This document shows, in pieces, positions 13,528-30,156 of a DNA stretch of 34,832 nucleotides. A program made the translations under genes and the position numbers. Every line of letters begins with the position of its first letter. The first letter of the stretch is position 1. The stretch lies in sequence record DRR378314_837. One strand, given 5' to 3'. The notes beneath the pieces were generated by a model. It was not told the origin of the DNA and did not search any database. It was given only the letters and a program-made list of their open reading frames with translations.

Positions 13528-15660
13528 TCAGGCCATTGTATGTGCCATCTGGCGGTCACGTCTGGCACTCCACACCAGCGTCATCAGAAACAGTGCCAAG
13601 CCCACGAAATCCAACAGCAAGTTTCCATGGGGCCACAGCATTAAAGCACCAATGGGGAACATGGCTAGGCGCAACCACCAGGGCAACTCGCTTTCCAGAT
13701 AGCCTTCCAGCCCTGCGATAATGGCGTAAATACCGAATAACGCGAAGGCAAACACCACCAGCATCTCGGTCGGTGTCCCGGTGATCATTGGCGACCACAC
13801 AAACAGCAAGGGAATGATGTAGAGGCCCTTGGCGATTTTCCAAGCGGTGAAACCGGTACGCATAGGTGGCGTTTTGGCGATAGCCGCCGCAGCGAAGGCG
13901 GTAAGGCATACTGGCGGAGTCACGTTGGAGTCCTGAGATAGCCAGAAAATCACCATGTGCGCCGCCACCAGCATCATCGATATCGTGTGCGGCGAAAGCG
14001 CTTGTTCGTAAAGCTGTGTACGGAAATCGTCCGGCACCAAGGCCAGTAGTTGTTGAGCACTGGCAGCGTCCATCGGGGCATTCAGCGCTTCTAAGGCATC
14101 TGGCGCGGCAAGCATAAAGATCGCCCGTGCCTGCTCGGGCAAATCACCGGCCATAATCAGTTCTAACAGCTGACTTTGTGCCATCAGACCATACAACGCA
14201 GGTGCCGATAGCGTGCCCAATACGATGTAAGCGGCCGTCACCGGCAACCCCATCCCCAGAATAAGAGAGGCCAGCGCGATCAACACGATGGTGATTAACA
14301 GGCTGCCGCCCGCCCAGTCTGAGATCATCAACGAGAAGATGTTACCAATGCCGGTCGTCGACACCACATTGACGATCAAGCCAACTGTCAGCAGTAGAAT
14401 GGCGGTGGAAACCATGTTGCGGGTGCCCAGTACCAAAGCGTCGATAATTGCCTGAAGCTTCATGGGTGAACGTGATAGCCAGGAAGCAACGACCACCGAC
14501 ACGATAGCGATACCGGCAGCATAGGTGGGAGTGAAGCCATTGATAAGGGCGACGACCAGCACCACGAGTGGCAGCAGGTAGTGCCAACCGCCCTTCAGTA
14601 CATCAATCAGTTTTGGAGCTTGTTCTGTTTCTACCTGATGAGTACCGCTACGCTTGGCTTCGATGCGCACGAACATGGCCACCGAGAGGAAGTACAGCAG
14701 TGCAGGAAGCGCAGCGACCCCGATAATGGTGAGATATGACACCTGGGTGTAAGAGGCCATGATAAAAGCCCCCGCCCCCATGACGGGAGGCATAAGCTGG
14801 CCCCCGGTTGAAGCAGCGGCTTCAACGCCAGCCGCAAAACGCGGCGGAAAGCCCGCTTTACGCATTAAGGGAATAGTGATCACACCGGTAGAGACCGTAT
14901 TGGCTACGCTGGAGCCAGAGACTGACCCCATAAGCCCTGAAGCGAATACCGCGACAAACCCCGGGCCACCAACAAAGCGACCCGCGGCACAACGCGCTAG
15001 CTCGATGATGAACTCTCCAGCACCCGAACGTACTAGGAAGGCACCAAAGAGAATGAACATGAAAACGTAAGACCAGGAAATCCGAGCAATCGAGCCCAGC
15101 ATGCCGTCACCGCCGAGGAAGCTGCGAAACAGAACGGTTTCCCAGTTCAGCCCGGGGAAATTGAACACCCCACCTACATAGCGCCCCCACCAGGCAACAT
15201 ACGTCAGTGCGATGATACATAGCAGCGGGATAAACCAGCCGGTAGTCCGGCGGGCAAATTCTAGTACCAACGCCAAAGCGGTAATCGACACGATCCAGTC
15301 AGCCAGGGAAAAGCGTACCCCACGGGCATAAAGCGCATCCTCAAAGCCGATTAAATAGAACGCACAGCCTAGGGCGGCTAGACCAAGACACACATCAACG
15401 GCGAGTAATAGGCGCTGACCGCTAGCCGAGCGCGCTTTGAACATCGGCACGGAAAGCGCGCACAACAGGCCGAACATACCGAAGTGTAATGCACTAACCC
15501 AAATTTCTGAGACAGTGCCCAGGGTATTGAAATAGATATGTGAGAAAGCAACGATGATGGCGAGCAAGCTCAGAATCCGCCCAAGCCAGGGGTGCTCAAG
15601 GCGCTCTGAAGCGCTGCTTGCGGATTCATCGCGCACCGTATCAGGTGTCGAATGACTCAT
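13528..15660 (-). CDS. TAXI-TRAP fused 4TM/12TM permease
   Basis: FMFILFGAFL; GSVSGSSVANTVSTGVITIPLM; EAAASTGGQLMPPVMGAGAFIMA; LILGMGLPVTAAYI; SNVTPPVCLTAFAAAAIA. GAGGT RBS before ATG 15660. Confidence 0.95.
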   Translation of the reverse strand: MSHSTPDTVRDESASSASERLEHPWLGRILSLLAIIVAFSHIYFNTLGTVSEIWVSALHFGMFGLLCALSVPMFKARSASGQRLLLAVDVCLGLAALGCAFYLIGFEDALYARGVRFSLADWIVSITALALVLEFARRTTGWFIPLLCIIALTYVAWWGRYVGGVFNFPGLNWETVLFRSFLGGDGMLGSIARISWSYVFMFILFGAFLVRSGAGEFIIELARCAAGRFVGGPGFVAVFASGLMGSVSGSSVANTVSTGVITIPLMRKAGFPPRFAAGVEAAASTGGQLMPPVMGAGAFIMASYTQVSYLTIIGVAALPALLYFLSVAMFVRIEAKRSGTHQVETEQAPKLIDVLKGGWHYLLPLVVLVVALINGFTPTYAAGIAIVSVVVASWLSRSPMKLQAIIDALVLGTRNMVSTAILLLTVGLIVNVVSTTGIGNIFSLMISDWAGGSLLITIVLIALASLILGMGLPVTAAYIVLGTLSAPALYGLMAQSQLLELIMAGDLPEQARAIFMLAAPDALEALNAPMDAASAQQLLALVPDDFRTQLYEQALSPHTISMMLVAAHMVIFWLSQDSNVTPPVCLTAFAAAAIAKTPPMRTGFTAWKIAKGLYIIPLLFVWSPMITGTPTEMLVVFAFALFGIYAIIAGLEGYLESELPWWLRLAMFPIGALMLWPHGNLLLDFVGLALFLMTLVWSARRDRQMAHTMA

Positions 15661-15697
15661 GGTGTACCTCATAACACTAAGTAAGGCATAGGGAGGC

Positions 15698-15725
15698 CAT
15701 CCGCCCGGCTTATGCCAGGCAGATG
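15698..15725 (-). other. Intercistronic mRNA hairpin after the TAXI binding-protein gene
   Basis: On the - strand CATCTGCCTGGC-ATAA-GCCGGGCGGATG pairs over 12 bp using two G:U wobbles; full pairing works only on the transcribed strand. Confidence 0.6.
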
Positions 15726-15740
15726 CAGGGCGATAGGCCT

Positions 15741-16766
15741 TCAGCCTTCGAGAAGATGCTCGGGAATTTCAATGCCTTGTTCACGGAAATAGCGCGCAGC
15801 ACCGGCATGCAGTGGAATCGGCAGACCGTCGAGCGCTTTTTCCAGAGCCATATCACGCGTTGCCGGGTGAATGTTGTTTAGAAACGGCAGGTTCTCGAAC
15901 ATGGCTTTGGTGATCTGGTACACATGCTCTTCAGGAACATCGGCGTTAACCACCAAAATATTGGGCTGGGAAATGGTATTGATCGGGGAGTCCTGACCAG
16001 GGTAAGTGTCGGCGGGAATTTCGAAAGCGCTCCACACTGGGTACTGGCTGTTAATGCGCTCAAGTTGCTCAGCGGTCACGTTCAGCGTGGTAATGTCATC
16101 GCCCATATTGGCATAGGCGCTGGTCACGGCAGAGGCCGGAACGCCTGCCGGTATGTTCATGCCGTCTATATTGCCGTTCTGCATGGAATCAGCGCTGGCA
16201 CTGTAGCCCAGGTAGGCAATATCCATCTGCTCCGGATCAATGCCCAGACCGGCAAGAATTTGCCGACCAGAACCTTCGGTACCGGAATTACGCGCCCCAA
16301 TGGAGAAACCGCGCCCGTAGAGCTGGGTCAAGTCATCAATGGTGCCAGTATCGACCAGTGCGTCACGCATCACAAAGTGTTCGACGTTCTGCCACAGCAT
16401 AGAAACTGAGCGTACGTTGTCATAGGCTTTGGGCACTGGCCCCTCACCGGACCATGCCCAGGCGCCGTAGAGCGCTTGCAGAATGCCGAATTGAGCCTGG
16501 TCGTCATCCATCAGGCGCAAGTTTTCCGCAGAACCCGCCGAGCTGATGGCGGAAACGGAGATGCCGTGGGTAGGCTCGAGCTTGACACGTATCAGTGTAG
16601 AAAGCGCGACGCCTACTGGATAGAACGTGCCACCGGTGGTGGCAGTGCCCATGATGTATTGTCCGCCCTCGGTAGGTTCCTGGGCGGTAACAGCGGAGGC
16701 ACTGACGCCGAATGCAGCGGCGGTAGCGAGACAAAGAGCGGTTTTAAGAAATTGGCGTTTCAGCAT
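15741..16766 (-). CDS. TAXI family TRAP substrate-binding protein
   Basis: Signal peptide; MGTATTGGTFYPVG; SAGSAENL; SIGARNSGTE; IPADTYPGQ; EEHVYQITKAMFENL; IPLHAGAARYFRE. Confidence 0.95.
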   Translation of the reverse strand: MLKRQFLKTALCLATAAAFGVSASAVTAQEPTEGGQYIMGTATTGGTFYPVGVALSTLIRVKLEPTHGISVSAISSAGSAENLRLMDDDQAQFGILQALYGAWAWSGEGPVPKAYDNVRSVSMLWQNVEHFVMRDALVDTGTIDDLTQLYGRGFSIGARNSGTEGSGRQILAGLGIDPEQMDIAYLGYSASADSMQNGNIDGMNIPAGVPASAVTSAYANMGDDITTLNVTAEQLERINSQYPVWSAFEIPADTYPGQDSPINTISQPNILVVNADVPEEHVYQITKAMFENLPFLNNIHPATRDMALEKALDGLPIPLHAGAARYFREQGIEIPEHLLEG

Positions 16767-16823
16767 GGTGTTGCTCCCAGCTTATTGGAATTGTTGGAGT
16801 AATCACTACTCCTTCCCCAATAG

Positions 16824-16840
16824 AGCGAGAAGCTAGCCAA
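16824..16840 (-). promoter_or_regulatory. sigma54 (-24/-12) promoter of the TAXI operon
   Basis: - strand TTGGCTAGCTTCTCGCT with exact GG-N10-GC spacing, about 60 bp upstream of the start codon, next to a GAFTGA activator gene. Confidence 0.75.
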
Positions 16841-16859
16841 CTTTAAACAAAGCCATAAA

Positions 16860-16872
16860 AATCAATAAATTA
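16860..16872. promoter_or_regulatory. IHF binding site
   Basis: AATCAA-TAAA-TTA is an exact match to WATCAANNNNTTR and lies between the sigma54 promoter and the enhancer boxes. Confidence 0.7.
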
Positions 16873-16912
16873 TGATTTCACCTCTACGACAAAAGGCGAA
16901 GGCGCCTGAACG

Positions 16913-16970
16913 ACCATCGGCCATTTTTCGCCGATGGTTTTTGCCCTCATCGGCAAAAAATGGCCGATGA
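16913..16970. promoter_or_regulatory. Paired enhancer (UAS) boxes for the DctD-type activator
   Basis: CATCGGC-N8-GCCGATG occurs at 16915-16936 and 16948-16969, 33 bp apart. The two boxes are 21/22 reverse complements of each other. Confidence 0.7.
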
Positions 16971-17005
16971 ATCAGCCCTAGCGCATTAACTCTTGAATCA
17001 ATCGT

Positions 17006-18388
17006 TTAGGTCGCGAGAAAGTCTTCGCGGCGTAACTGGTGACGCTGCATTTTCTGATTGAGTGTACGGCGAGGCAGGTCGAGTTCATCGAGTACCGCTT
17101 GAATATTGCCATTATGGCGCTGTAGCGCTTCTTTCAAGACGGTAGCCTCAAATACTTCCATACGCACAGAGAGTGCAGACGCTTGATGTGGCGGCATAGG
17201 CGAGCTTTGCCAGGGCAGATCCAGCCCAAGAATAAAGCGCGTGGCAATATTGCGCAGCTCGCGGAGGTTTCCAGGCCACCGATGATTGCCGAGGGCAGTC
17301 AGCAGTTCTGTGGAGGGTTCGCGTAGCGGCCTTTCGTGAACATCAGCGGCTTGATGGCAGAAGTGACGAAACAGTAAGGGAATATCTTCGCGGCGCTCAC
17401 GCAAGGGAGGAATCGCCAGCTCAGCAATCGCCAGACGATAATAAAGATCCTCGCGAAAATCTCCTTGCGAGACCATTTCCAGCAAGTTCTCTTTACTGGC
17501 CGCCACGACCCGAAGATGGAGGTGAATAACCTGGTTGCTGCCTAGCCGGGTAATTTCACCTTCCTGCAGTGCGCGCAATAGCTTAACCTGGGCAGACAGT
17601 GGCAGTGACTCTATTTCATCCAAAAAGAGGGTGCCGTGGCTAGCGGTTTCCAGCAGGCCTATACGTCGCTCTCCCGCCCCGGTAAAGGCACCTTTTTCAT
17701 GCCCGAACAGCTCTGATTCAATTAATTCACTGTTCATGGCGCCACAGTTCAACGCCACAAAAGCGCCTTGGCTACCGCTGCCAAAGTCATGCAAGGCGCG
17801 AGCCACGACTTCCTTGCCGCTGCCCGTTTCACCATTGATAACCACGTTGGCGCGGCTAGCAGCTAAGTTTTCCACTTGGCGCCGCAGTAGTTGCATCAGT
17901 GCAGAATCGCCAAGCAGGCGCGTGCTTAAATAGTTATTCCGTAATGCCTGCTGTAACTGCAAGTTTTCCAGCGCCAGGGCCCGATGCTCTAGTGCTCGTC
18001 GTACACACTCCTCAAGGCGTTCAGGATCGAAGGGCTTTTGCACAAAGTCCCAGGCCCCCTGCTGAATCGCAGCAACCGCCATGGGGACATCACCGTGGCC
18101 CGTGATCAGAATCACCGGGGGCGGCGTATCGAGTGCTTGCACGGCGGCAAACAAGGCCAAGCCATCCATCTCGGGCATCTTGATATCACTGACGACGACA
18201 CCGCACGGCTGGCCGTTTTGAAGTGCATTCAGCGCCTTACCGGCGCGTGAAAACGTGTGAACCTCTAATCCCGACACCTCCAGCCATTGGCTAAGAGAGT
18301 CACGGACATCGGCTTCATCGTCCACTAGCCAGACGGGCAGAGAAGCAGCCGATAGTCGAGCTAAGGTGCTAGAAGATGCGTGCGTCAT
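17006..18388 (-). CDS. dctD: sigma54-dependent response regulator, DctD/MifR type
   Basis: Receiver domain (LVDDE, VVSDIKMPEMDG, ITGHGDVPMAV, KPF); GETGSGKE; ESELFGHEKGAFTGA; WPGNLRELRN; Fis-type HTH. Confidence 0.9.
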   Translation of the reverse strand: MTHASSSTLARLSAASLPVWLVDDEADVRDSLSQWLEVSGLEVHTFSRAGKALNALQNGQPCGVVVSDIKMPEMDGLALFAAVQALDTPPPVILITGHGDVPMAVAAIQQGAWDFVQKPFDPERLEECVRRALEHRALALENLQLQQALRNNYLSTRLLGDSALMQLLRRQVENLAASRANVVINGETGSGKEVVARALHDFGSGSQGAFVALNCGAMNSELIESELFGHEKGAFTGAGERRIGLLETASHGTLFLDEIESLPLSAQVKLLRALQEGEITRLGSNQVIHLHLRVVAASKENLLEMVSQGDFREDLYYRLAIAELAIPPLRERREDIPLLFRHFCHQAADVHERPLREPSTELLTALGNHRWPGNLRELRNIATRFILGLDLPWQSSPMPPHQASALSVRMEVFEATVLKEALQRHNGNIQAVLDELDLPRRTLNQKMQRHQLRREDFLAT

Positions 18389-20151
18389 GAAGGTGTCTCC
18401 TCACCATGCGGTAATGTCAGACAAAACCAAGCGCCCCCAGCGGGGTGATTACCAGCGCTGAGTTTACCGCCAAGATCCTGAGCAATGCCGTAGCTAATAA
18501 ACAGCCCCAGCCCTAAGCCTTCCCCAACCGGTTTAGTCGTAAAGAATGGGTCGAACATCTGCTCGATCACTTCTTGGGGCAAGCCTGGGCCATTGTCATG
18601 GATCGTCAACTGCACTTGTTCCGTAGTGACCTCAACGTGAAGACGAATGACCCCATTGGCTATGTCGTTCAACGCATCCAGCGCATTACGCAGCAGGTTG
18701 GTAAGCAACTGCTCAAGGCGAACGTCATCGCCGCGTACCCAGAGTGACTGCGGCCAATCGCCGTCACGCTCCAAACGCACTTTTTGCTGCTGGAAACGCT
18801 CCTCGAGTAGTTCTAGTACGAAGTTCAGGCTGGCCGGAAGATCCACGCTCTCGCGGCTCTCGCCCTTGCGAGCAAACAACTTTAGCTGCTCGATTAACCG
18901 AGCGAGGCGTTTGCTCAATACCTGAATACGTTGGAAGTTGTCGCCTGCCATTTCCTGACGGCCGAGCGCCAACAACCGCTCACCGTTGGCAGCATAAGTG
19001 CGGATGCCTGAAAGGGGTTGATTAAGCTCATGGGCAATGCCTGCCGCCATGGTCCCCAAGGCGGCCAATTTACCCGCTTGGACCAGTTCAGCTTGCGCAT
19101 CCTCTAAGGCCTGGGTGCGTTCCTGGACACGCTCTTCCAAGCGAATATTGGTTTGCTGGATGATTTTCGCCTGAGCATCGCGCATATGTTGGCGTTTTTG
19201 GCGTTCACGCAACCACAAGCCAAACAACAAAAGAGCGGACAGCGTGACTAAGCCCGCCAGAAGTACATTGCGAGCACTGATATAAAGTGGCCGCACCGGG
19301 CTGAGATAATGCATCGACCAACCCAGTGTAGAAAGCGGCAGGGAAGCGACCAGAAAACGCTCGCCTCCTCCTTGTGCTTGGTTGCCTATTACCAGCGTAT
19401 CGTCATGTAGCCGCTGGCCGAGCGGGGAAAGCGACTTATCGAGAAATTGACGTTGGGCATTAATCTGCGCCAATGCATCATCAGAAAGCCCATCAATGTG
19501 CTGAAACCGCCACTGCTCACGGCTAGAAAGTATCACAACGCCATTGGCATCTGACAAAATGACGTTCTCTTGTGCTCGACGCCAATCCTCTTGAAGCGCT
19601 TCCAGTGAGACCTTAACCACCAGGACTCCCGCAGAGGCAGTGTCGTCGCCAAGCGTAACGACATAAGAGGTGAAATAACCCGGCTGTCCGGTTGTGTCAC
19701 CGATCGCAAAGAATTCACCGCTACCGCTCTGCATGGCATCGTAAAAATAGGGGCGGAAGTGATAATCGTGGCCAATGAAACTTTGCTCGAGTGCATAGTT
19801 GCTGCTGGCCAGGGTGACGCCTTGCTCATTCATCAGAAAAATGGCGTCAGCGCCCGAACGCTCAGCGACCTCTGCCAAGTGCTGATTAACAGGCGACAGA
19901 AATAACTCACTGGGTTCGCGCAGGGCAGCCTGGACTAAAGGCTGCTGGGCCAGTAAGTCAGGCAGGTAGGTAAAGCGCTCAAGCGCGCCTTGCAGGCTGC
20001 TGGTGTAGAGCGCTAGACGCGTATTCGCGTGACGCTGGGCATCCGCTTCGGCGTGGCTGTATTGCCAATGCCATAACCACCATAACCCTAAAAGGCTCAG
20101 CACGATTAAAGAGGCCAGAACCAGCGCATACAGCCAAATCTTTCTGCTCAC
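18385..20151 (-). CDS. dctB: Sensor histidine kinase, DctB/MifS type (dCache)
   Basis: TM; ASSNY...SFIGHDYHFRPYF; AIGDTTGQPGYF; H-box GIAHELNQPL; NLLRNALDA; DNGPG; FDPFFTTKPVGEGLGLGL. Overlaps the dctD start by 4 nt. Confidence 0.9.
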   Translation of the reverse strand: MSRKIWLYALVLASLIVLSLLGLWWLWHWQYSHAEADAQRHANTRLALYTSSLQGALERFTYLPDLLAQQPLVQAALREPSELFLSPVNQHLAEVAERSGADAIFLMNEQGVTLASSNYALEQSFIGHDYHFRPYFYDAMQSGSGEFFAIGDTTGQPGYFTSYVVTLGDDTASAGVLVVKVSLEALQEDWRRAQENVILSDANGVVILSSREQWRFQHIDGLSDDALAQINAQRQFLDKSLSPLGQRLHDDTLVIGNQAQGGGERFLVASLPLSTLGWSMHYLSPVRPLYISARNVLLAGLVTLSALLLFGLWLRERQKRQHMRDAQAKIIQQTNIRLEERVQERTQALEDAQAELVQAGKLAALGTMAAGIAHELNQPLSGIRTYAANGERLLALGRQEMAGDNFQRIQVLSKRLARLIEQLKLFARKGESRESVDLPASLNFVLELLEERFQQQKVRLERDGDWPQSLWVRGDDVRLEQLLTNLLRNALDALNDIANGVIRLHVEVTTEQVQLTIHDNGPGLPQEVIEQMFDPFFTTKPVGEGLGLGLFISYGIAQDLGGKLSAGNHPAGGAWFCLTLPHGEETPS

Positions 20152-20267
20152 TGTGAGTTTGCCTTAACGGTCGAATTGATCAGACCTAAGAGCTTATCAC
20201 CCAGGCGTAAGCACTCCCATTGTCGAAGGTATCTCTAACGCCCTCCAGCGTAGCGGCAAACTCATCA

Positions 20268-21296
20268 CTATACGGTTGCCACTGGAGTCACCGGCGAGCC
20301 AATGGCGCCTGGCAGCCGAAGTGGTGGCGCCGTCAGCAAGAACCGGTTGCGCTGGCGGCTATGCAACCATTCTGCTAAATCTTTCAGATACCATAACTCC
20401 GCCAGCGGCAATCCGAGTTTGAACAGGCAATGATGGTGCAATGGAAGTTTAGAGCAACAGCTCGACGCCAACTCACGGTCTAAGTTTTCCACCGCATAAT
20501 TATCCGCACAGATCGCCGCAATGCCGCTGTCAGTGATCCACTCCAGCAAGGCTGAATCACTGCCATCAAGCACTGCCCCGGTGTTTTTCAGCACCTCTGG
20601 CTGTGGCGTACCCTGCATATCCAACAACGCCTCGGCGAACCCTGTGCGCAATACCAGCATATCGCCACGCTCCACCACCACGTTCAGTTGTTTCAGCGCT
20701 TCCATCAACTCCAGGTGCCCTACCAGCGTTCTTCCCGCACCGAAAACTCTCACCAAATCGACCAATACGGCCCGGCCCTGCATGCCATGTGTCGCCAGTG
20801 TCTCGATTCCCAGGCGTCTAGCATAGGAGTCGTGCCACTGGGCCGATTCTCCGCTCAGATCGAGCACATCCTGCTCGGCCAGGTAGCCGTTGTAGTAGCG
20901 GCGTTCTGGCGTGCCATCACCATCGCCATCGAACAGAGCGCCCACGTGAGCCAGGGAGTCCCACTGCGTGGAGTACTGCAACGATAGCTGAACCTGGTCA
21001 TCACTAATAACGTCATGCAGCGCGGGGCTATGAGTCGCCAGGGGAAAGTTGATGTACTGGTCATCACCCAGAGCTGTCGGGGTTAGCTTCGGAGGCGAAC
21101 GACGGGGGTTCAACACCTTTCCGCCGGGGATATCCAGAGGTAGCGACAAGCAGAATGTCACCCCTTCGTGGACTTCCTTCACACCTTTGAGCACCTGCTC
21201 GGTGCCGATCAGGTTGACTCGCCCCAGTTGATCTTCAGGGCCAAACTCGCCCCAGTTGCTACCTTCAGGACGTTTCTTCCAGCGAGGCTGATTCAT
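20268..21296 (-). CDS. Cyclase-family (KynB-fold) putative metal-dependent hydrolase
   Basis: NWGEFGPEDQLGRVNLI; QYSTQWDSLAH; GRAVLVD; GDMLVLRTG; ADNYAVE; LHHHCLFKLGLPLAELWYL; APPLRLPGAIGSPVTPVA. Confidence 0.9.
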   Translation of the reverse strand: MNQPRWKKRPEGSNWGEFGPEDQLGRVNLIGTEQVLKGVKEVHEGVTFCLSLPLDIPGGKVLNPRRSPPKLTPTALGDDQYINFPLATHSPALHDVISDDQVQLSLQYSTQWDSLAHVGALFDGDGDGTPERRYYNGYLAEQDVLDLSGESAQWHDSYARRLGIETLATHGMQGRAVLVDLVRVFGAGRTLVGHLELMEALKQLNVVVERGDMLVLRTGFAEALLDMQGTPQPEVLKNTGAVLDGSDSALLEWITDSGIAAICADNYAVENLDRELASSCCSKLPLHHHCLFKLGLPLAELWYLKDLAEWLHSRQRNRFLLTAPPLRLPGAIGSPVTPVATV

Positions 21297-22198
21297 AACT
21301 TGTCTCCACCGGCATGTTGGGTAGCGATTTCAATGATACGCTGCAGGTTTTCCCGCTCCCGGGCCTGGTGCTGGGTCCGCGTCTCATCGCTCCACTGGTA
21401 GAAACCTTGCCCAGCCTTGGCACCTAGGCGACCTTGAGCCACGTACTCTTCAAGCAGAGCGGCAGGTTGCTGACGTGCTTCGAGATCCGCATAGAGGTAA
21501 TGGGCGATATTCAGATGGGTGTCCAACCCGTTAAGGTCGCGCTGACATAAGGGGCCGTTCAACGCCATACGCACACCAATAGAGTACTGCACGATATCAT
21601 CCAGCGCTTCGGCCCCCACTACCCCTTTTTCCAACAGGGAGAGGCATTCACGCATCACCGCATGCTGGATCCGGTTAGCGACGAAACCAGGTACACAGGT
21701 ATTCAGTACCGCAGGGCGTTTCCCCCAACGCTTTAGCCAACCGCACACCTTTTCCACTACTGCTGCCTCGGTATGGCTGCCTGGCACCACTTCCACGGCA
21801 GGTATGATATCCGCCGGATTAAAGAAGTGCGTCCCCAGGAACCGTTGCGACACACGCATGGCACTTCCGATGTCATCAATCGGAATACCCGATGTATTGG
21901 TCACGATGATACAAGTATCGGCCACTTCAGACTCGATTTGCGCCACGACCTTTCGCTTAATCGCGACGTCTTCTGTCACGCTCTCAATGACAAAATCAGC
22001 ACTCTTCGCCACTTCCAAATCCGTGGTAAAGCAAATAACTGCAGCACTCTCCCCCACACTCAAGCGACTGGCTTCCAATACCTTCGGGTTGGTATCAACC
22101 ACAGTGACCTTGACACCATGCGTCGCCATTAACTTGGCCAGCGTGGTGCCCATGGTTCCCGCACCTACCACAGCAGCTTGCAATGAATCGTCCTGCAT
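21293..22198 (-). CDS. 3-hydroxyacyl-CoA dehydrogenase family protein (short form)
   Basis: VVGAGTMG Rossmann motif; VIESVTE...K; NTSG; HFFNPA...VEVV; PGFVANRIQ; GRLGAKAGQGFY. Confidence 0.92.
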   Translation of the reverse strand: MQDDSLQAAVVGAGTMGTTLAKLMATHGVKVTVVDTNPKVLEASRLSVGESAAVICFTTDLEVAKSADFVIESVTEDVAIKRKVVAQIESEVADTCIIVTNTSGIPIDDIGSAMRVSQRFLGTHFFNPADIIPAVEVVPGSHTEAAVVEKVCGWLKRWGKRPAVLNTCVPGFVANRIQHAVMRECLSLLEKGVVGAEALDDIVQYSIGVRMALNGPLCQRDLNGLDTHLNIAHYLYADLEARQQPAALLEEYVAQGRLGAKAGQGFYQWSDETRTQHQARERENLQRIIEIATQHAGGDKL

Positions 22199-22272
22199 CA
22201 GTCCTTCCTCCTTCGTCTGGCTCGGAGATCATTCACGTGAACCTAGACAAATGTCGCATTGAATAAAACTAG

Positions 22273-22296
22273 TCGTGAGTCAAAGATCACTCACGA
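22273..22296. promoter_or_regulatory. Perfect inverted repeat in the divergent promoter (candidate operator)
   Basis: TCGTGAGT-CAAAGATC-ACTCACGA. Confidence 0.45.
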
Positions 22297-22306
22297 AAAA
22301 CGAACT

Positions 22307-22327
22307 TATGTACGCTATGCGTACATA
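22307..22327. promoter_or_regulatory. IclR/PcaR-type operator palindrome
   Basis: TATGTACGC-TAT-GCGTACATA, same architecture as 34001-34021. Confidence 0.6.
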
Positions 22328-22367
22328 GTAGACAATGACAGGCACGCCGACAATAAGAGGGCTTCCT

Positions 22368-23702
22368 ATGAATGCGCTGGCAAATTTCTTCACCCGGCTC
22401 GTTAACCGCTACATGCCCGATCCTCTCGTCATCGCGATCCTCCTAACCATGCTCACAATGCTCCTGGCAGTGTTAATGCAGGGCACCAGCCCTTTGAATG
22501 CAGTGCGTTATTGGGGCGATGGTTTCTGGGACTTACTGGCCTTCAGCATGCAAATGACGGTCATCCTCCTAGCGGGCTATATCCTGGCCAAAACGCCCTT
22601 GGTTGACGGCATACTCAATCGCGTCGCAGCACGCGTCACAACGCCCTTCGTCGCGATTGTTGTTGCCACTCTGGTGGGAGGTATCGGTAGCTGGCTAAAC
22701 TGGGGTTTCGGCTTGGTCATCGGCGGTATAGTCGCCCAGAAGTTGGCGCTTAACGTGAAAGGCTTACATTACCCACTAGTGATCGCTGCGGCGTATTCTG
22801 GCTTTGCTCTTTATGGTATCGGCCTGTCTGGCAGCGTGCCGCTACTGATCGCCACCGAAGGGCACTTTCTTCAGGATACGATTGGATTAATCCCACTGAG
22901 CGAAACAATTTTCTCGCCCATTCTTTTGATCACCAGCGCCCTTATTCTTCTCACTCTTCCTTTCTTCAATGCCTGGCTGCATCCCAAGCAAGCCGAAGAT
23001 ATCGTCGAAATCGATCCAGCCACGGTAGCCAAGCCCTCCGCAGCCCCGCTGCCCAACGACACAAAAACCACCATCGCCGAACGCTTGAATCGCAGCAAAG
23101 TGGTGGGCATTGGCATCGGCGCGCTAGGCATGCTGTATATTGCACTGTATGCATTCGATGGCGGTTCGCTGAACCTTAATACCATCAATTTCGCCTTCCT
23201 GTTTTTGGGTATATTGCTATTTGCCTCGCCTGCCAACTACCTAGCCGCCTTGGCGGATGGGATTCGTATCGTCTCTGGCATTATCGTGCAGTACCCTTTC
23301 TACGCCGGGATCATGGGAATTCTCGTGGGGTCAGGGCTGGTGGTTTCGTTCGCCAATACCTTCGTTGATATATCCAGTGCGCAAACCTTGCCTATCTGGT
23401 CATTTATCAGCGGCGCCATCATCAACCTGCTGGCACCATCCGGTGGCGGCCAATGGGCTGTCCAAGGTCCTGTTATGGTTCAAGCCGCCACAGAACTTGG
23501 TGCTTCCCAGGCAGCCACGGCGCTGGCCGTCCAAATTGGTGACCAATGGAGCAACATGGTTCAGCCGTTCTGGATCCTCCCGGTGTTAGCCATCTCCGGC
23601 TTGAAGTTACGTGATGTGATGGGCTACATGGTGCTGATCCTAATCTACCTCGGGGTCATCTACGCCAGCGCGATGCTGATCTGGGGCTACCTCGGCGCCT
23701 AA
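22368..23702 (+). CDS. Short-chain fatty acid transporter, AtoE family
   Basis: RYMPDPLVIAILLT; WGDGFWDLLAFSMQM; NWGFGLVIGG; HYPLVIAAAYSG; QYPFYAGIMG; PSGGGQWAVQGP; GDQWSNMVQPFW. AAGAGG RBS before ATG 22368. Confidence 0.92.
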   Translation: MNALANFFTRLVNRYMPDPLVIAILLTMLTMLLAVLMQGTSPLNAVRYWGDGFWDLLAFSMQMTVILLAGYILAKTPLVDGILNRVAARVTTPFVAIVVATLVGGIGSWLNWGFGLVIGGIVAQKLALNVKGLHYPLVIAAAYSGFALYGIGLSGSVPLLIATEGHFLQDTIGLIPLSETIFSPILLITSALILLTLPFFNAWLHPKQAEDIVEIDPATVAKPSAAPLPNDTKTTIAERLNRSKVVGIGIGALGMLYIALYAFDGGSLNLNTINFAFLFLGILLFASPANYLAALADGIRIVSGIIVQYPFYAGIMGILVGSGLVVSFANTFVDISSAQTLPIWSFISGAIINLLAPSGGGQWAVQGPVMVQAATELGASQAATALAVQIGDQWSNMVQPFWILPVLAISGLKLRDVMGYMVLILIYLGVIYASAMLIWGYLGA

Positions 23703-23748
23703 CCATTCTTATCTACGCTTAACCACTCTTGACTTACGGGACTGCCCC

Positions 23749-24045
23749 ATGCCTTTTTTGATCGAAACTTTCGACAAGCCCGCCCAGCAGGCACTACGCC
23801 TGGAGGTACGCCAAGCCCACCTGGAGTATCTGGATGCCAACGTAGTGACCTTATTGGCCTGTGGCGCCAAGCTTTCCGATGATGGCGAAACGGCGTCTGG
23901 CGGTATCTACCTAGTCGACTTGGATAGCCGTGAGGAGGCCGAGCACTTCATCGAGTCCGACCCATTCCACCAAGCGGGGCTATTCGCCGAGGTTAAAATC
24001 GTGCGCTGGCGACAAGCCTATTTAAATCGAAAAAACACTCTGTAG
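23749..24045 (+). CDS. YciI family protein
   Basis: R...RQAHLEYL; GAKLSDDG; GGIYLVD; EEAEHFIESDPF (conserved His and DPF motif). Confidence 0.9.
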   Translation: MPFLIETFDKPAQQALRLEVRQAHLEYLDANVVTLLACGAKLSDDGETASGGIYLVDLDSREEAEHFIESDPFHQAGLFAEVKIVRWRQAYLNRKNTL

Positions 24046-24084
24046 CGCGAATACCTGTAGCAAAACTACCCATGGAGAAGTGCA

Positions 24085-24375
24085 ATGCTGTTTCATGTAG
24101 AAATGGTCGTAAAACTGCCGGCGGATATGCCCGCCGAGCAAGTGGCTGACATCAAAGCAAAGGAGAAAGCCTACTCTCAGGAGCTACAACGGCAAGGCAA
24201 ATGGCGCCACCTATGGCGGATCGCTGGCAGCTACGCCAACGTCAGCATCTTCGACGTCAGTGACAATGCTGAACTCCACGATCTTATTAGCGGTTTGCCG
24301 CTGTTTCCCTATATGGATATCCATGTGAAGCCATTATGCGGTCATCCTTCATCTATACACGAAGGTGACGCATAA
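24085..24375 (+). CDS. catC: Muconolactone Delta-isomerase
   Basis: MLFHVEM...EKAYSQELQRQGKWRHLWRIAGSYANVSIFDV...LPLFPYM...HPSSI, 96 aa. Confidence 0.97.
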   Translation: MLFHVEMVVKLPADMPAEQVADIKAKEKAYSQELQRQGKWRHLWRIAGSYANVSIFDVSDNAELHDLISGLPLFPYMDIHVKPLCGHPSSIHEGDA

Positions 24376-24466
24376 CAGCTCTGCTCTATCGACTCCGCCG
24401 CGTTTTCTTACAGGCTCTTAATAGCTAACGAGCGCGGCATATCGTCGAATCTATAGAAACGCTAAT

Positions 24467-24525
24467 GTCATGCCCACCAAACGCTAGCGTATCGTAGTGT
24501 GTCTCTAGCGCTTAGTGGGCATGAC
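24467..24525. terminator. Long interrupted hairpin between convergent catC and pcaD
   Basis: GTCATGCCCAC-caaa-CGCTAG...CTAGCG-ctta-GTGGGCATGAC. Confidence 0.55.
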
Positions 24526-24590
24526 GGTTATGCGGTTATAGAAATACTTCTCTCTGCCTATACCTGTTTGCGATCCTCCAGTCCGGAGGC

Positions 24591-25409
24591 TTACGCCACA
24601 CCGTCACCTAAATCGGCGGAAAGCACAGCAATAAGCTTTTGCGCAAACAGCACCGGAGCTTCTACCGACGGCACATGACCCACACCGTCAAATATCTCCA
24701 ACGGTGCGCCGTCGAGTTCCGCAGCCAAGGCTTCCAACGTTGCGGGCGGCGTGGCCATATCTTCACTGCCGCCAAACAGCTGTACCCTGAACTCATGAGG
24801 GGCGTTCTTACCAGAAAGCTTTCCAGAGAACGTATTACGACCAAGCATTTCGCATAGCTGGGCGTAGGACTCATCGTCGCCACGGCCCATTTGTACGCAC
24901 CATCCTGCTTTCAGCGCCGGACTTGCCTCAAAGGCCTGTGGTGCAAACCAGCGCGGCACGATTTCTTCAGACATCGCTGCCAGGCCTTCCTGGCGCACTC
25001 GGCCTGCGCGGGTGTTCCAGAGATCAGGATTGCCGATCACTGCGCCAGTATTGGTCAGCGTAGCGGAGAGCAACCGGTCGCTATGTTCAGCGATCAACTG
25101 CTGGCCGACGACACCGCCAATGGACGTACCGGCAAAGTGAAAGCGCTCAGCAGCCGCCAGCTCTGCCAATGCCAGAGCCTCAGCGGCTAAATCAGCGGGA
25201 GTGATTTGTGCACCGCTGGCTGCCTGACTAGCTCCGTGGCCGGGAAGATCCCAGGTCAGCACCCGGTAGCGAGGTAGCAGCGCGGGAATGATGTCGTCCC
25301 ACACGGCTTGGCTCATGCCCAGTGGATGCGCTAGCACGATAAGTGGATTCACATCCGAGCCGAGCAATCGGTAAGCGACGCTGCGGCCATTGATAGTATG
25401 AAAGGCCAT
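24591..25409 (-). CDS. pcaD: 3-oxoadipate enol-lactonase (alpha/beta hydrolase)
   Basis: LAHPLG...WD; DLPGHG; GTSIGG nucleophile elbow; WNTRAGRVRQEGL; PRWF; GHVPSVE. GGAGG RBS before ATG 25409; follows pcaF. Confidence 0.85.
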   Translation of the reverse strand: MAFHTINGRSVAYRLLGSDVNPLIVLAHPLGMSQAVWDDIIPALLPRYRVLTWDLPGHGASQAASGAQITPADLAAEALALAELAAAERFHFAGTSIGGVVGQQLIAEHSDRLLSATLTNTGAVIGNPDLWNTRAGRVRQEGLAAMSEEIVPRWFAPQAFEASPALKAGWCVQMGRGDDESYAQLCEMLGRNTFSGKLSGKNAPHEFRVQLFGGSEDMATPPATLEALAAELDGAPLEIFDGVGHVPSVEAPVLFAQKLIAVLSADLGDGVA

Positions 25410-25419
25410 GCTACCTCCG

Positions 25420-26622
25420 TTAAACGCGTTCAATCAGCGTGGCGATACCCTGACCCACGCCTACACACATGGTGCACAATGCATAGCGCTTGCCGCTGTT
25501 TTGCAGCTCATGAGCAGCGGTCATTAACAGGCGCGCACCGGACATACCCAGCGGGTGACCCAGGGCAATCGCGCCGCCGTTAGGGTTGACGCGTGGATCG
25601 TCGTCTTTAAGGCCCAAGTCACGCATGCAGGCCAGTGCCTGGGCAGCGAACGCTTCGTTGAACTCAAACACATCGATATCATCCATGGTGATACCAGTGC
25701 GTTTAAGCAGTTTTTGCACAGCAGGTACCGGACCATATCCCATGATGCGCGGCTCAACGCCGGCCGTGGCCATGCCAATAATTTTCGCCATCGGTGTCAG
25801 ACCATGCTGTTTAACCGCCGCGTCACTGGCCACCAGCATCGCCGCCGCACCGTCGTTAACGCCCGACGCATTGCCTGCGGTCACGCTACCGCCTTCACGG
25901 AACGGCGTAGGCAACCCTGCCAGTTTTTCCAGGGAGGTTTCCCGCAGATGCTCATCCTGATCAAAGATTAGCGGCGCCTGCTTGCGGCGGGGAATCTCGA
26001 TGGCGGTGATCTCTTGGGCAAAGCGCCCCGCTTTTTGGGCGGCAGCGGCTTTCTGCTGGGAGCGCAGAGCAAAAGCGTCCTGGTCTTCACGAGAGATAGC
26101 GAACTGCTCGGCGACGTTTTCGGCGGTTTCCGGCATCGAATCCACCCCAAACGCTTTCTTCATCAGCGGGTTGATAAAGCGCCAGCCGATGGTGGTATCT
26201 TCGATCTTTTGCCCGCGCGCAAAAGCGCCTTCAGCCTTGCCCATCACGTAGGGCGCTCGCGACATGGACTCCACGCCGCCTGCCAGTGCCAGCTCCATTT
26301 CGCCCGCTTTAATCGCGCGAAACGCGGTACCGACCGCGTCCATGCCCGAACCACACAGGCGGTTCATGGTTGTGCCGGGTACCGAGGTCGGGATGCCCGC
26401 CAGCAGCGACGACATACGTGCCACGTTGCGGTTGTCTTCACCGGCCTGGTTGGCGCAGCCCATAAACACTTCGTCAATGGCAGCAGGGTCAAGATCCGGC
26501 ACTTCCGCCAGTACGGCTTTAAAAATCGTCGCGGCGAAATCATCGGGGCGCACGCTGGCCAAGGTACCAGCGAAGCGGCCAACGGCAGTGCGGCGCGGGT
26601 GGCATAAATAGACATCACTCAT
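25420..26622 (-). CDS. pcaF: 3-oxoadipyl-CoA thiolase
   Basis: GCANQAGEDNRNVARM; NRLCGSG; DTTIGWRFINP; NEAFA; GHPLGMSG; TMCVGVGQG. Start ATG 26622 (400 aa). Confidence 0.96.
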   Translation of the reverse strand: MSDVYLCHPRRTAVGRFAGTLASVRPDDFAATIFKAVLAEVPDLDPAAIDEVFMGCANQAGEDNRNVARMSSLLAGIPTSVPGTTMNRLCGSGMDAVGTAFRAIKAGEMELALAGGVESMSRAPYVMGKAEGAFARGQKIEDTTIGWRFINPLMKKAFGVDSMPETAENVAEQFAISREDQDAFALRSQQKAAAAQKAGRFAQEITAIEIPRRKQAPLIFDQDEHLRETSLEKLAGLPTPFREGGSVTAGNASGVNDGAAAMLVASDAAVKQHGLTPMAKIIGMATAGVEPRIMGYGPVPAVQKLLKRTGITMDDIDVFEFNEAFAAQALACMRDLGLKDDDPRVNPNGGAIALGHPLGMSGARLLMTAAHELQNSGKRYALCTMCVGVGQGIATLIERV

Positions 26623-26632
26623 ACAAAGCTCC

Positions 26633-27406
26633 TTATTCACCCGCGTGGGCACGCTCGGTGCGTGCTTTCAGTTCGCGCAATATTTCAAGCTCGTTGGGGT
26701 TCGGTTCCGGCGTGCTCTCCAGCTGTTCGGCAAAGCGAATATCCCAACCGGTTGCGTCAATCACGTCTTCACGGGTGACGCCGGGGTGTAGCGAGACGAC
26801 GACCAGCTCTTTGGTGTCCGGGTCGGGCTTCATCACGCATAGGTCGGTAATGACCCGCGTGGGACCCTTGCCAATATTGGGAACGTTATCGCGTCCTTTG
26901 CCATCACGGCCAAAGCCTAGCGTGGTGACGAAGTCGACATCTTTCACAAACGCGCGCTTTGAGTGCTTCAGGGTAATAAACACTTCACCAGCGTTGGTGG
27001 CGATTTCCGGCGCACCGCCGCCGCCCGGCAAACGAACCTTGGGCGCTTTGTAATCACCGATCAACGTGGTGTTAAGGTTGGCAAAGCGGTCGATTTGCGC
27101 AGTGCCTAAAAAGCCCACGTTCACTTTGCCACCTTGTAACCAGTAACGGAACATCTCTGGCACGGCCACCGTGGTCAACGCTGATTCGCACAGCTCACCG
27201 TCACCAATAGAGAGCGGCAGAACCTCAGGCTTGGTTTGCAGGGTGCCGGACTCATAAATCAGCACGACCTCAGGCGCATGGGTTAGGCGTGCCAGGTTGG
27301 CGGCTTCAGAAGGTAGACCAATACCCACAAAGCAGGTCATGCCATTTTCTAACGCACGGGCAGCGGTCACAGTCATCATTTCAGAAGAGGTGTATTCCTG
27401 ACTCAT
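26633..27406 (-). CDS. pcaJ: 3-oxoadipate CoA-transferase subunit B (CatJ, glutaconate CoA-transferase type)
   Basis: CFVGIGLPSEAANLARLTHAPEVVLIYESG; RLPGGGGAPEIA. Start ATG 27406 overlaps the upstream stop (TAATG). Confidence 0.92.
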   Translation of the reverse strand: MSQEYTSSEMMTVTAARALENGMTCFVGIGLPSEAANLARLTHAPEVVLIYESGTLQTKPEVLPLSIGDGELCESALTTVAVPEMFRYWLQGGKVNVGFLGTAQIDRFANLNTTLIGDYKAPKVRLPGGGGAPEIATNAGEVFITLKHSKRAFVKDVDFVTTLGFGRDGKGRDNVPNIGKGPTRVITDLCVMKPDPDTKELVVVSLHPGVTREDVIDATGWDIRFAEQLESTPEPNPNELEILRELKARTERAHAGE

Positions 27407-28224
27407 TAGGCATGCTCCTCTGCACCGTAGATATTCTTGTCGATCCATTGCGTAAAGGTATCGCGGTCACGAGCAATGGCATCCCACTCTTTATAGAAGC
27501 GGTTGCTGCGACCGTAGTAGCCATGGGTATACGAAGGCAGCGCGCCCTTTTCTGCCACGGCAACAGCACTAATCGCCCAGCCAGGAATCACACAAGCATT
27601 GGGATGAGCGTTCAGGTCATCGACAATCTCTTCCACGGTGACAATGCTGTGCTTAGCAGCCAACACCGCCTCTTTCTGTACGCCAACAATACCTTCCACC
27701 AGCACATTACCTTGTCGATCCGCCCGCTGGGCGTGAATGATCGACACATCCGGCCGCACAGAAGGAACCGCCGCTAGGCGTTCACCGGTAAACGGGCACT
27801 CAATAAATTTGATTTGATCATTCACGCTCGGCAGCTCGCTACCGACATAGCCACGCAGCACAGCCATTGGCAGGCCAGCAGCCCCAGCCTCAAAGGCGCA
27901 GGCCATCGCGGCATGACTGTGCTCAAGAATCTCAATTTTGCACGGCCAGCCTTTCTCAACCGCATCGCGCAGTCGATGCAGCGAGCCCACGCCGGGATTA
28001 CCGCCCCAGGAGAAGATCACCTTTTTAGCACAGCCCGCGCCAATCATTTGGTCGTAGATGATATCGGGGGTCATACGGATCAGCGTCAGGTCGCGCTTTT
28101 TCTGACGGATCACTTCGTGACCCGCGGCAAACGGAATCAGGTGGGTAAAGCCCTCCATGGCAACGGTGGCGCCATCTTCGACGTAGCGCGCTACCGCGTC
28201 ATGCAAGCTCAAGAACTCAGCCAT
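27406..28224 (-). CDS. pcaI: 3-oxoadipate CoA-transferase subunit A (CatI type)
   Basis: EGFTHLIPFAAGHE; RMTPD; FSWGGNPGVGSLHRLRDA; CPFTGE; HAQRADRQGN. AGGAG RBS before ATG 28224. Confidence 0.92.
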   Translation of the reverse strand: MAEFLSLHDAVARYVEDGATVAMEGFTHLIPFAAGHEVIRQKKRDLTLIRMTPDIIYDQMIGAGCAKKVIFSWGGNPGVGSLHRLRDAVEKGWPCKIEILEHSHAAMACAFEAGAAGLPMAVLRGYVGSELPSVNDQIKFIECPFTGERLAAVPSVRPDVSIIHAQRADRQGNVLVEGIVGVQKEAVLAAKHSIVTVEEIVDDLNAHPNACVIPGWAISAVAVAEKGALPSYTHGYYGRSNRFYKEWDAIARDRDTFTQWIDKNIYGAEEHA

Positions 28225-28252
28225 AGGTCTCCTCCTGGCAGTGACTCTCGAC

Positions 28253-28290
28253 AAGTTCGAATAACGAACTTTGTTTTGTATTGCGAACAA
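28253..28290. promoter_or_regulatory. Tandem PcaR-type boxes in the pcaI promoter
   Basis: Perfect AAGTTCG-AATAA-CGAACTT (28253-28271) abutting degenerate TTGTTTTGTATTGCGAACAA; matches the GTTCG-N5-CGAAC core of PcaR/PobR/PcaU operators. Confidence 0.75.
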
Positions 28291-28337
28291 TTTACTCCCG
28301 TCATATTCACTCGTCAAACCCCACCAAGCACGCATAC

Positions 28338-28361
28338 AAAAGGGGAGGCTAAGCCTCCCCT
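28338..28361 (-). terminator. Intrinsic terminator (- strand) upstream of the pcaI promoter
   Basis: - strand AGGGGAGGC-TTA-GCCTCCCCT-TTT. Confidence 0.8.
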
Positions 28362-28555
28362 CTCATTAATATCGGTAAAAACCCTATTATTTCAGATAAT
28401 TATTCATTCTTAAGCCAGGCAGATGCACGCGCTACTTGGCGTAAGCTACTACCAAGGTATAGCGTCGGGTCACAAGCGTTACGCAGCTTTTCATGAAGGA
28501 GATATCTTTATGGTCTTTGCACTGCTTTTTGCCCTCGTACGGCTTCGCGTACCGT

Positions 28556-28999
28556 TTAAACGCAGGATTTTATAATGGCGTTTAAAGCGGCCTCGTAACC
28601 CTCTGTCCCAAGCCCCGCAATGACCCCATCTGCCCGCTGCGAGACATAGGAGTGATGACGGAAGCTTTCGCGTTTATGGACATTTGAGATATGCACCTCA
28701 ATGACCCTACCCTCAAAGGCATTAAGCGCATCCAGGATAGCGACAGATGTATGGGTATAGGCGGCCGGGTTTATGATGATAGCCAGCGTGCCATCGAGAC
28801 GCGCCGCATGAATGGCGTCAATCAATTCGCCCTCGTGATTGCTTTGAAAACAGCTGATATCCCAGCCCTGTCTCTCAGCTGTTTCAGCCAAAGCGTTATT
28901 AACATCGTCTAGCGTCTCATAGCCGTAAACGTCTGGTTGGCGAACGCCTAAAAGATTTAAATTAGGTCCGTGAAGGACCGTTACTTTTGGTTGTCCCAC
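28556..28999 (-). CDS. aroQ: Type II 3-dehydroquinate dehydratase
   Basis: [77 protein letters not shown] start. Confidence 0.97.
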
Positions 29000-29106
29000 T
29001 GCTTGTCTCCTTTCGTGGCATTACGTCACCGTCGGAAGTCGTTATGCCTATAATAACGTGTCGTTGAGTGCTTAATCTGTCTTTATAATGTCTAAAAATC
29101 GTTCAA

Positions 29107-30116: not shown

Positions 30117-30156
30117 TATGCACGCCCATCTAATAATATTTAATTGGTGTTTAACA

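Follow-up and report, generated by a model that had tools for sequence, protein, structure and literature searches.

A conserved gene set for uptake and conversion beside a 3-oxoadipate lower pathway: candidate entry point for a non-aromatic C6 lactone or hydroxy-acid

The DNA analysed here is a stretch of 34,832 nt from the sequence record DRR378314_837 (the window, in what follows, is this whole stretch). Between positions 20268 and 24375 it carries two divergent transcription units: one encodes a cyclase-family hydrolase and a short dehydrogenase of the 3-hydroxyacyl-CoA dehydrogenase (HACD) family, the other an AtoE-type transporter, a YciI-family protein and the muconolactone isomerase CatC. 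An original prediction, made from the sequence alone, had described this divergon, and all its genes and their coordinates were confirmed by Pfam and NCBIfam profiles. The features of the divergon, and of the lower-pathway genes that follow catC, are listed below.

20268-21296, minus strand: predicted cyclase-family (PF04199) metal-dependent ester/lactone hydrolase, 342 aa (Pfam E 1.7e-10)
21293-22198, minus strand: HACD-family NAD-dependent dehydrogenase, 301 aa (PF02737 E 1.2e-45 and PF00725 E 4.7e-20)
22199-22368: divergent control region with two inverted repeats and a conserved upstream box
22369-23702, plus strand (open reading frame (ORF) readable from 22335): AtoE/TIGR00366-family carboxylate transporter (PF02667 E 3.5e-132)
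23749-24045, plus strand: YciI-family protein, TftG-like, 98 aa (PF03795 E 3.1e-20)
24085-24375, plus strand: muconolactone delta-isomerase CatC, 96 aa (TIGR03221, 157.2 bits against a cut-off of 130.6)
24591-25433, minus strand: PcaD-like alpha/beta hydrolase, probable enol-lactonase, convergent with catC (TIGR02427, 181.5 bits)
25420-26652, minus strand: 3-oxoadipyl-CoA thiolase PcaF (TIGR02430, 677.8 bits against a cut-off of 597)
26633-27448 (subunit B) and 27406-28335 (subunit A), minus strand: class I CoA-transferase of two subunits (PF01144 in both)

The HACD and hydrolase genes are translationally coupled, as had been proposed: the HACD stop and the hydrolase start share ATGA, and a GGAGA ribosome-binding site lies upstream. 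The proposed convergence of the other arm on pcaD stands in part. A PcaD-like gene and pcaF do converge with catC, but the PcaD cut-off is not reached (181.5 against 255.85 bits), and for this reason the gene is called PcaD-like throughout.

The prediction had also remarked that catC is found here without its usual partners catA, catB and catR, and this holds both in the window and in the whole of the nearest genome, G001, which shares 95% identity with the window across 19.9 kb, has the same gene order there, is 99% complete and was used for a gene census. G001 has a single CatC, and its only PcaD-like gene is the one adjacent to the module. Searches of G001 with the catA (intradiol dioxygenase) profile and for pcaC gave no match, while the best catB candidate reached 223 bits against a cut-off of 335 and the best pcaB candidate 83.8 bits against 355.75, so that neither a true catB nor a true pcaB was found (pcaGH was not searched for). 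Therefore, an ordinary lower pathway would have no input in this genome and, as the usual enzymes for opening aromatic rings are missing from this host lineage, the gene set suggests a breakdown route that is not yet described. Five further module-bearing genomes (G002-G006) were examined: G005 has no true catB, and in G003 and G006 the module CatC is present in addition to a catB-linked CatC.

The neighbourhood of the module was then surveyed across genomes from two independent seeds. With the hydrolase as seed, 590 of 600 matched genome-contig stretches encode a relative, and the best 80 loci were kept; the YciI seed gave 56 loci, a few genomes being common to both sets. Neighbours were sought by tblastn with defined query proteins within 9 kb of the seed gene. 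All five genes of the predicted module proved to be conserved, but the conserved set has a sixth member, one short-chain dehydrogenase/reductase (SDR), so that the core comprises AtoE, YciI, CatC, hydrolase, HACD and SDR. Specifically, among the 80 hydrolase-seeded loci AtoE is present in 33, YciI in 33, CatC in 32, the SDR in 48 and HACD in 28, and the full set in 23; the hydrolase stands alone in 26, some of them short contigs. The 56 YciI-seeded loci carry AtoE (37), CatC (35), the hydrolase (33), the SDR (30) and HACD (30), with the full set in 24.

The hosts extend across Gamma-, Beta- and Alphaproteobacteria and Actinomycetota. They comprise Halomonadaceae, Alcaligenaceae, Burkholderiaceae, Rhodobacterales, Stappiaceae and Xanthobacter, together with actinomycetotal genera including Arthrobacter, Citricoccus, Kocuria, Georgenia and Saccharopolyspora. 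Lineages differ in the order of the genes and in their regulators (LysR, IclR): Achromobacter has one ten-gene operon, HACD-AtoE-SDR-unknown-PcaI-PcaJ-CatC-YciI-PcaD-hydrolase; Paraburkholderia shows the order IclR-hydrolase-SDR-HACD-AtoE-CatC-YciI; a minimal form, IclR-hydrolase-AtoE-YciI, occurs in Burkholderia; and the Rhodobacterales modules have a LysR regulator. When linkage to the module is mapped on a tree built from 114 hydrolase sequences, 6 changes are needed, against a mean of 36.8 after shuffling, and none of 500 shuffles was as low, close relatives inflating this clustering; a 40-row group of the tree is wholly module-linked. In addition, the type strain Vreelandella alkaliphila DSM 16354 carries a copy of the module that is 97-99% identical by protein. 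The survey thus bears out the expectation that these genes belong together, as they co-occur in four bacterial classes, in shuffled orders and with different regulators.

The module is usually accompanied by PcaD and by a consumer of 3-oxoadipate, either PcaIJ or a BKACE. A true PcaD is found in many modules. The Achromobacter operon contains true PcaI (377.7 bits against a cut-off of 128.5), PcaJ (300.1 against 243.55) and PcaD (300.2 against 255.85). On a Sulfitobacter plasmid (locus L085), a BKACE and pcaD come after the hydrolase, the BKACE matching the model of the 3-oxoadipate:acetyl-CoA acetyltransferase with 468.4 bits against 350, and a Roseibacterium locus (L113) holds, by tblastn, a homologue 79% identical to this BKACE. 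A BKACE-type exit for beta-ketoadipate has been proposed in pca clusters (PMC8963497), and the NetSyn BKACE preprint does not mention the module genes. The window differs in this respect, as it lacks a BKACE and carries a CoA-transferase and PcaF instead. Across lineages, then, the output of the module is tied to 3-oxoadipate, via PcaD, PcaIJ or a 3-oxoadipate-type BKACE.

In Halomonadaceae, the block of pcaD-like, pcaF and CoA-transferase genes adjoins the module on either side, depending on the genome; CoA-transferase genes lie beside the module in 7 of the 56 YciI-seeded loci, all of them Halomonadaceae. The CoA-transferase subunits of the window are long (271 and 309 aa) and score far below the cut-offs of the PcaIJ/ScoAB models (45.5 bits for TIGR02428 and 42.4 bits for TIGR02429), which indicates that the 3-oxoadipate-activating enzyme is here a different class I subtype, of the large-subunit type.

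The cyclase-family hydrolase matches PF04199 with 41.7 bits against a gathering cut-off of 23.1. No NCBIfam model matches it, and a search of the protein-cluster atlas returned 'cyclase' clusters only, with no functional lead. Its sole relative in the PDB is 5IBZ (E 1.9e-40), the metagenomic esterase MGS0169, described in PMC5341072 as a Mn-stimulated carboxylesterase in which the classical motif His-x3-His-x-Asp-x3-His is replaced by Gln-x3-Gln-x-Asp-x3-His. According to the same paper, mutation of Q127, Q131, D133, R87, H286 or E299 abolishes the activity, and the modified motif is common to the trans-dienelactone hydrolase of Pseudomonas reinekei MT1 (PMC5341072). The hydrolase of the window contains this motif as QYSTQWDSLAH, aligned with LQGSTQWDALSH of 5IBZ. 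Its residues Q107, Q111, D113, H117, R65/R66, H287-289 and E300 show no variation among 13 aligned relatives, which range from Halomonas to Bordetella, and R65/R66, H287-289 and E300 align with the essential R87, H286 and E299 of MGS0169. On the basis of the 5IBZ match, the motif and these invariant counterparts, the 'cyclase' is predicted to be a metal-dependent ester/lactone hydrolase of the trans-dienelactone hydrolase/MGS0169 subfamily and not a formamidase. Of the amide- or ring-opening activity suggested at first, the ester/lactone side is retained, while the amide-opening, formamidase type is disfavoured by both the motif and the structural match.

Relatives of the hydrolase also occur elsewhere. 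In Achromobacter (L013-L025, e.g. L015 8157-13392), a second, paralogous hydrolase has a different but equally fixed context, in which it is flanked on one side by an SDR and TctC, on the other by an AMP-forming acyl-CoA ligase together with a GntR regulator. The hydrolase-SDR pair in such paralogous contexts, with the carboxylate-binding TctC and an acyl-CoA ligase, fits a lactonase plus a hydroxy-acid dehydrogenase. Distant plasmid paralogues of 50-55% identity (Sphingobium, Cupriavidus oxalaticus, Variovorax) were set aside, their contexts being unrelated. Furthermore, a 14.2-kb contig of a metagenome-assembled genome (MAG), L070, contains the hydrolase twice in a near-perfect inverted duplication with mirrored ORF lengths, most likely an assembly artefact.

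As far as the dehydrogenases are concerned, HACD scores best in NCBIfam against the FHMPC dehydrogenase model (219.6 bits, where the cut-off is 500), and its best PDB match is likewise a FHMPC dehydrogenase, 4OM8 (E 1.4e-47). None of the curated CoA-specific equivalogs (3-hydroxyacyl-CoA and 3-hydroxybutyryl-CoA dehydrogenase) is reached, all NCBIfam models scoring far below their cut-offs. Two HACD subfamilies fill this slot of the module: the FHMPC-dehydrogenase-like one present here and, in Paraburkholderia, PRK06129, with carnitine-dehydrogenase-like second matches. The characterised FHMPC and carnitine dehydrogenases use free acids, and PcaD and BKACE both handle free 3-oxoadipate. Because two HACD subfamilies share one slot and the exit enzymes act on free acids, the substrate of HACD is probably a free 3-hydroxy acid.

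The SDR of the module matches the enoyl-reductase-type profile PF13561 and scores 114.7 bits against the 3-hydroxybutyrate dehydrogenase model, whose cut-off is 307. In G001, its orthologue lies about 12 kb from catC and is 77% identical to the Vreelandella arctica SDR; it comes after an IclR gene and an ORF of the size of an acyl-CoA dehydrogenase, and is next to TctABC-sized ORFs. Extrapolation from G001 places the SDR of the window lineage about 1.4 kb beyond the right end of the window.

The YciI-family protein matches PF03795 with 72.9 bits and NF009503 with 148 bits (cut-off 145), and the Pfam scan returned no other small-isomerase family. Its best PDB relative is TftG (4LBH, E 1e-10), followed at a distance by HI0828 (E 0.024). 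The stretches AHLEYL and SDPF, with their His and Asp, align with AHLAYL and NDPF of TftG, in which His and Asp form the catalytic dyad. The broad kinship to the muconolactone isomerase fold and to the family of TftG that had been suggested for this protein can therefore be narrowed to a TftG-like YciI. CatC, in turn, matches TIGR03221 over positions 1-90 of 90, above the equivalog cut-off, and is 76% identical to a Halomonas CatC and 70% identical to a Paraburkholderia CatC, both encoded beside a true catB.

Two metatranscriptome-type RNA runs (X14 and X19) contain short contigs, 95-97% alike, that span and bridge HACD/hydrolase and AtoE-end/YciI/CatC, and from which transcription, strand and level are not readable. 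Two runs labelled as RNA-Seq (X15 and X17) cover window positions 17000-29000 with collinear contigs of 6-34 kb at even depth, which look like genomic DNA of a relative. None of these runs was used as support.

The transporter gene most likely starts at 22369 (MNALANFF..., preceded by AAGAGGG) rather than at 22335, the N-terminus MNALANFF being kept in relatives, and the control region is therefore 170 bp long. AtoE scores 440 bits against TIGR00366, below the cut-off of 575.75. Both palindromes predicted in the control region are present with perfect arms, of 8 nt in the first (22273-22280/22289-22296) and 9 nt in the second (22307-22315/22319-22327), but their conservation is limited: in a comparison of four Halomonadaceae loci, the upstream box TAGACAAATGTCGCATTGAATAAA is kept, as is the second repeat in one of its halves, and the first repeat is not. 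As hairpin-plus-T-run shapes, the palindromes are no commoner than chance (3 found, 3.2 expected), an Rfam search of the region detected no RNA family and a sigma-70 scan of the intergenic region no promoter. No regulator gene is adjacent to the divergon in the window and, among the regulators of the module loci, none reaches a named NCBIfam equivalog, so that no inducer can be deduced.

Beyond the CoA-transferase, at 29385-34831, the window carries a dicarboxyl-CoA beta-oxidation-like set identified by Pfam: a nitroreductase-family gene, a family III CoA-transferase, a PaaH-like HACD of 509 aa, an enoyl-CoA hydratase-like ORF and a PcaR-like IclR truncated by the window end, which scores 114.9 bits against TIGR02431, under the cut-off. 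In V. arctica (L001), too, this set borders on the module, and in G001 it is followed by the acyl-CoA-dehydrogenase-sized ORF and then by the module SDR. Altogether, the module and its surroundings resemble an island for the use of C6 dicarboxylates and lactones, with 3-oxoadipyl-CoA as the meeting point.

Further genes were recorded in the surroundings. A conserved ORF of 483-494 aa (L001 14456-15907; L149 7648-9132) lies by TctABC beside the module in V. arctica, without Pfam or NCBIfam match in the V. arctica copy, and G001 has an ORF of similar size. Between the SDR and pcaI, the Achromobacter operon encodes a protein of 308 aa (L004 6172-7098) that matches neither Pfam nor NCBIfam models and is 47-83% identical in the other Alcaligenaceae copies. 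In the window, directly downstream of the hydrolase and on the same strand, are a dCache sensor kinase (18385-20151) and a NtrC-type sigma-54 activator (17006-18388), followed on that strand by a TAXI-type TRAP transporter (binding protein 15741-16766; fused 714-aa membrane protein 13528-15672). These sensor kinase, NtrC and TRAP genes (13528-20151) are probably a unit separate from the module, since they are missing from the corresponding place in V. arctica. Upstream of the TRAP system, a minus-strand group at 8727-12302 comprises a Na+/H+ antiporter-family gene, a DAO-type FAD oxidoreductase and an IclR-type regulator without NCBIfam match.

Taken together, these data lead us to propose, with about even confidence, that the divergon represents, in this DNA, a conserved accessory module for uptake and conversion, which would take a putative non-aromatic C6 lactone or hydroxy-acid to 3-oxoadipate. 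AtoE would import a non-aromatic C6 carboxylate in its gamma-lactone or hydroxy-acid form, candidates being muconolactone and its reduced or substituted relatives, 3-hydroxyadipate 3,6-lactone among them. In the direction and order of steps that we presume, an unsaturated lactone would be turned into the enol-lactone by CatC, possibly with YciI as a proton-shuffling isomerase, and the PcaD-type hydrolase would open the enol-lactone to 3-oxoadipate. Lactones that PcaD cannot open would be converted by the metal hydrolase to a hydroxy-dicarboxylate, which the NAD-dependent dehydrogenases, HACD and SDR, would oxidise to 3-oxoadipate. Here, the adjacent CoA-transferase and PcaF would then yield succinyl-CoA and acetyl-CoA, a task that elsewhere would fall to PcaIJ or BKACE. 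The co-occurrence of the genes, the 3-oxoadipate exit enzymes, the lineage without ring-cleavage genes and the lack of a matching published pathway all support the earlier suggestion that an imported small acid or lactone reaches 3-oxoadipate by an undescribed route; a literature search, with most subscription papers and supplements outside its reach, found no published description of the six-gene set.

Several observations weigh against this proposal. CatC and PcaD suffice for muconolactone, and the second hydrolase, the two dehydrogenases and YciI are explained only by assuming several related substrates. The trans-dienelactone hydrolase produces maleylacetate and MGS0169 cleaves acetyl esters, so that neither of the nearest characterised hydrolases makes 3-hydroxyadipate; moreover, the tie to the former is drawn through the motif statement in PMC5341072. 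In the window lineage the SDR is outside the operon, and the PcaD-like protein is under the PcaD cut-off. The distribution is not uniform either: the hydrolase (E 1e-60 or better) is sporadic in Halomonadaceae, being found in 3 of 101 genomes at least 90% complete, and YciI stands alone in 17 of the 56 YciI-seeded loci, mostly in the Pseudomonas oryzihabitans group, where it is 61-64% identical and its neighbours are uninformative, and on short MAG contigs. In G002 and G004, the module CatC is the only CatC and a true catB lies elsewhere; in these two genomes it may serve the ordinary catechol route too. Finally, the chemistry is not readable from the sequence at this level.

An alternative that we consider unlikely is a route of the maleylacetate type, in which the metal hydrolase would open a dienelactone-like or 4-substituted muconolactone-like compound to maleylacetate, YciI would act as a TftG-like tautomerase or eliminase, and the SDR or HACD would replace the iron-type maleylacetate reductase in forming 3-oxoadipate, with CatC and PcaD taking a parallel unsubstituted lactone. 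The hydrolase motif shared with trans-dienelactone hydrolase, the best solved relative of YciI and the enoyl-reductase-type profile of the SDR are consistent with such a route. Trans-dienelactone hydrolase and TftG, moreover, both belong to chloroaromatic degradation routes, which lead through maleylacetate to 3-oxoadipate. Conversely, an iron-type maleylacetate reductase is found in none of the modules examined, and we know of no SDR or HACD that reduces maleylacetate and of no natural source of dienelactones. G001, with no match for an intradiol dioxygenase to make such lactones, would also need to import the substrate.

The systems from which these enzymes are known resemble the module only in part. 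TftG, a 5-chloro-2-hydroxyhydroquinone dehydrochlorinase, acts on a chlorinated hydroxyquinol, and its gene lies beside those of a hydroxyquinol dioxygenase and a maleylacetate reductase; the module, unlike this, has no dioxygenase, and a chlorinated substrate is not expected. In the cca cluster of P. reinekei MT1, the hydrolase is reportedly encoded together with a chlorocatechol dioxygenase, a chloromuconate cycloisomerase and a maleylacetate reductase, whereas these three enzymes were not found here. The likeness of our hydrolase to CcaC, the trans-dienelactone hydrolase of that strain, and to MGS0169 consists in the PF04199 subfamily, the Q-x3-Q-x-D-x3-H motif and the conserved Arg, His and Glu, CcaC being likened through the published motif statement (PMC5341072); MGS0169 has no known physiological substrate or context.

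Improbable, in our judgement, is a pathway for substituted muconolactones like the mml pathway of Cupriavidus, in which the transporter would import a dead-end substituted muconolactone of other organisms, YciI would be the counterpart of the rearranging isomerase MmlI, CatC of MmlJ and the metal hydrolase of MmlL, an enol-lactone hydrolase that is not of the alpha/beta type, while the dehydrogenases would handle the substituent. The mml enzymes belong to families other than PF03795 and PF04199. In line with this, the families of MmlI (methylisomerase) and MmlL (hydrolase) were not found among the module proteins of the window, where YciI matches PF03795 only and the hydrolase PF04199 only. 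The parts do correspond in outline: as set out in PMC6449761, the mml pathway (MmlH, I, J, L, F, G, C) imports or salvages a muconolactone unusable by the ordinary route, acting on it with two small isomerases and a non-canonical lactone hydrolase before a CoA-transferase and a thiolase take over, and the module likewise has a transporter, two small ferredoxin-fold proteins and a metal hydrolase, then a CoA-transferase and a thiolase. However, other protein families occupy the transporter, first-isomerase and hydrolase slots, the module has two dehydrogenases that mml lacks, and its exit enzymes fit unsubstituted 3-oxoadipate, as indicated by the BKACE variant and by the true PcaD of many modules. 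Also, the module CatCs are ordinary, being above the equivalog cut-off and 70-76% identical to catB-linked CatCs.

That catC, pcaD, pcaF and the CoA-transferase are simply an ordinary lower beta-ketoadipate pathway, with the transporter, HACD, SDR, cyclase and YciI as unrelated neighbours from, e.g., short-chain or ketone-body acid metabolism, is very improbable, for although AtoE, HACD, SDR and 3-oxoacid CoA-transferase are families of acetoacetate/3-hydroxybutyrate metabolism and in G002 and G004 the sole CatC is that of the module, with catB distant, the six genes remain together in four classes despite reshuffling, G001 would leave the pathway without input, two genomes carry the module CatC besides a catB-linked one, and the SDR is far under the 3-hydroxybutyrate dehydrogenase cut-off. 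The proposed module does share with the catechol branch of the beta-ketoadipate pathway a CatC over the cut-off, an adjacent PcaD-type hydrolase, PcaF, a CoA-transferase and the end of the route, from 3-oxoadipate to succinyl-CoA and acetyl-CoA. It differs in that the window lacks catA, catB and a CatR/CatM-type regulator, G001 lacks catA and a true catB, and CatC is accompanied by four extra conserved genes and a dedicated transporter.

In conclusion, the funnel itself is known, and what would be new is the feeder joined to it: a textbook lower half of the beta-ketoadipate pathway stands alone in a genome unable to open aromatic rings, in the company of four conserved genes and a dedicated transporter. 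Should a natural C6 lactone or hydroxy-acid prove to be what the module degrades, it would be a new entry point into this central catabolic funnel, would explain the commonness of trans-dienelactone-hydrolase-type and TftG-like proteins in bacteria that never meet chloroaromatics, and would be a source of new lactonases and of free-acid 3-hydroxy-dicarboxylate dehydrogenases useful in the production of adipate or muconate. More tentatively, and with less confidence than we have in the conversion to 3-oxoadipate, we suggest that the six-gene set may be a natural pathway, widespread though not yet described, by which a lactone exometabolite (muconolactone-like, or reduced forms, from other microbes, algae or plants) is used, and the natural reservoir from which two orphan enzymes of chloroaromatic degradation, the type I trans-dienelactone hydrolase and TftG, were recruited. 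If true, this would provide the first physiological role outside xenobiotic breakdown for both families, and for the large YciI family generally.

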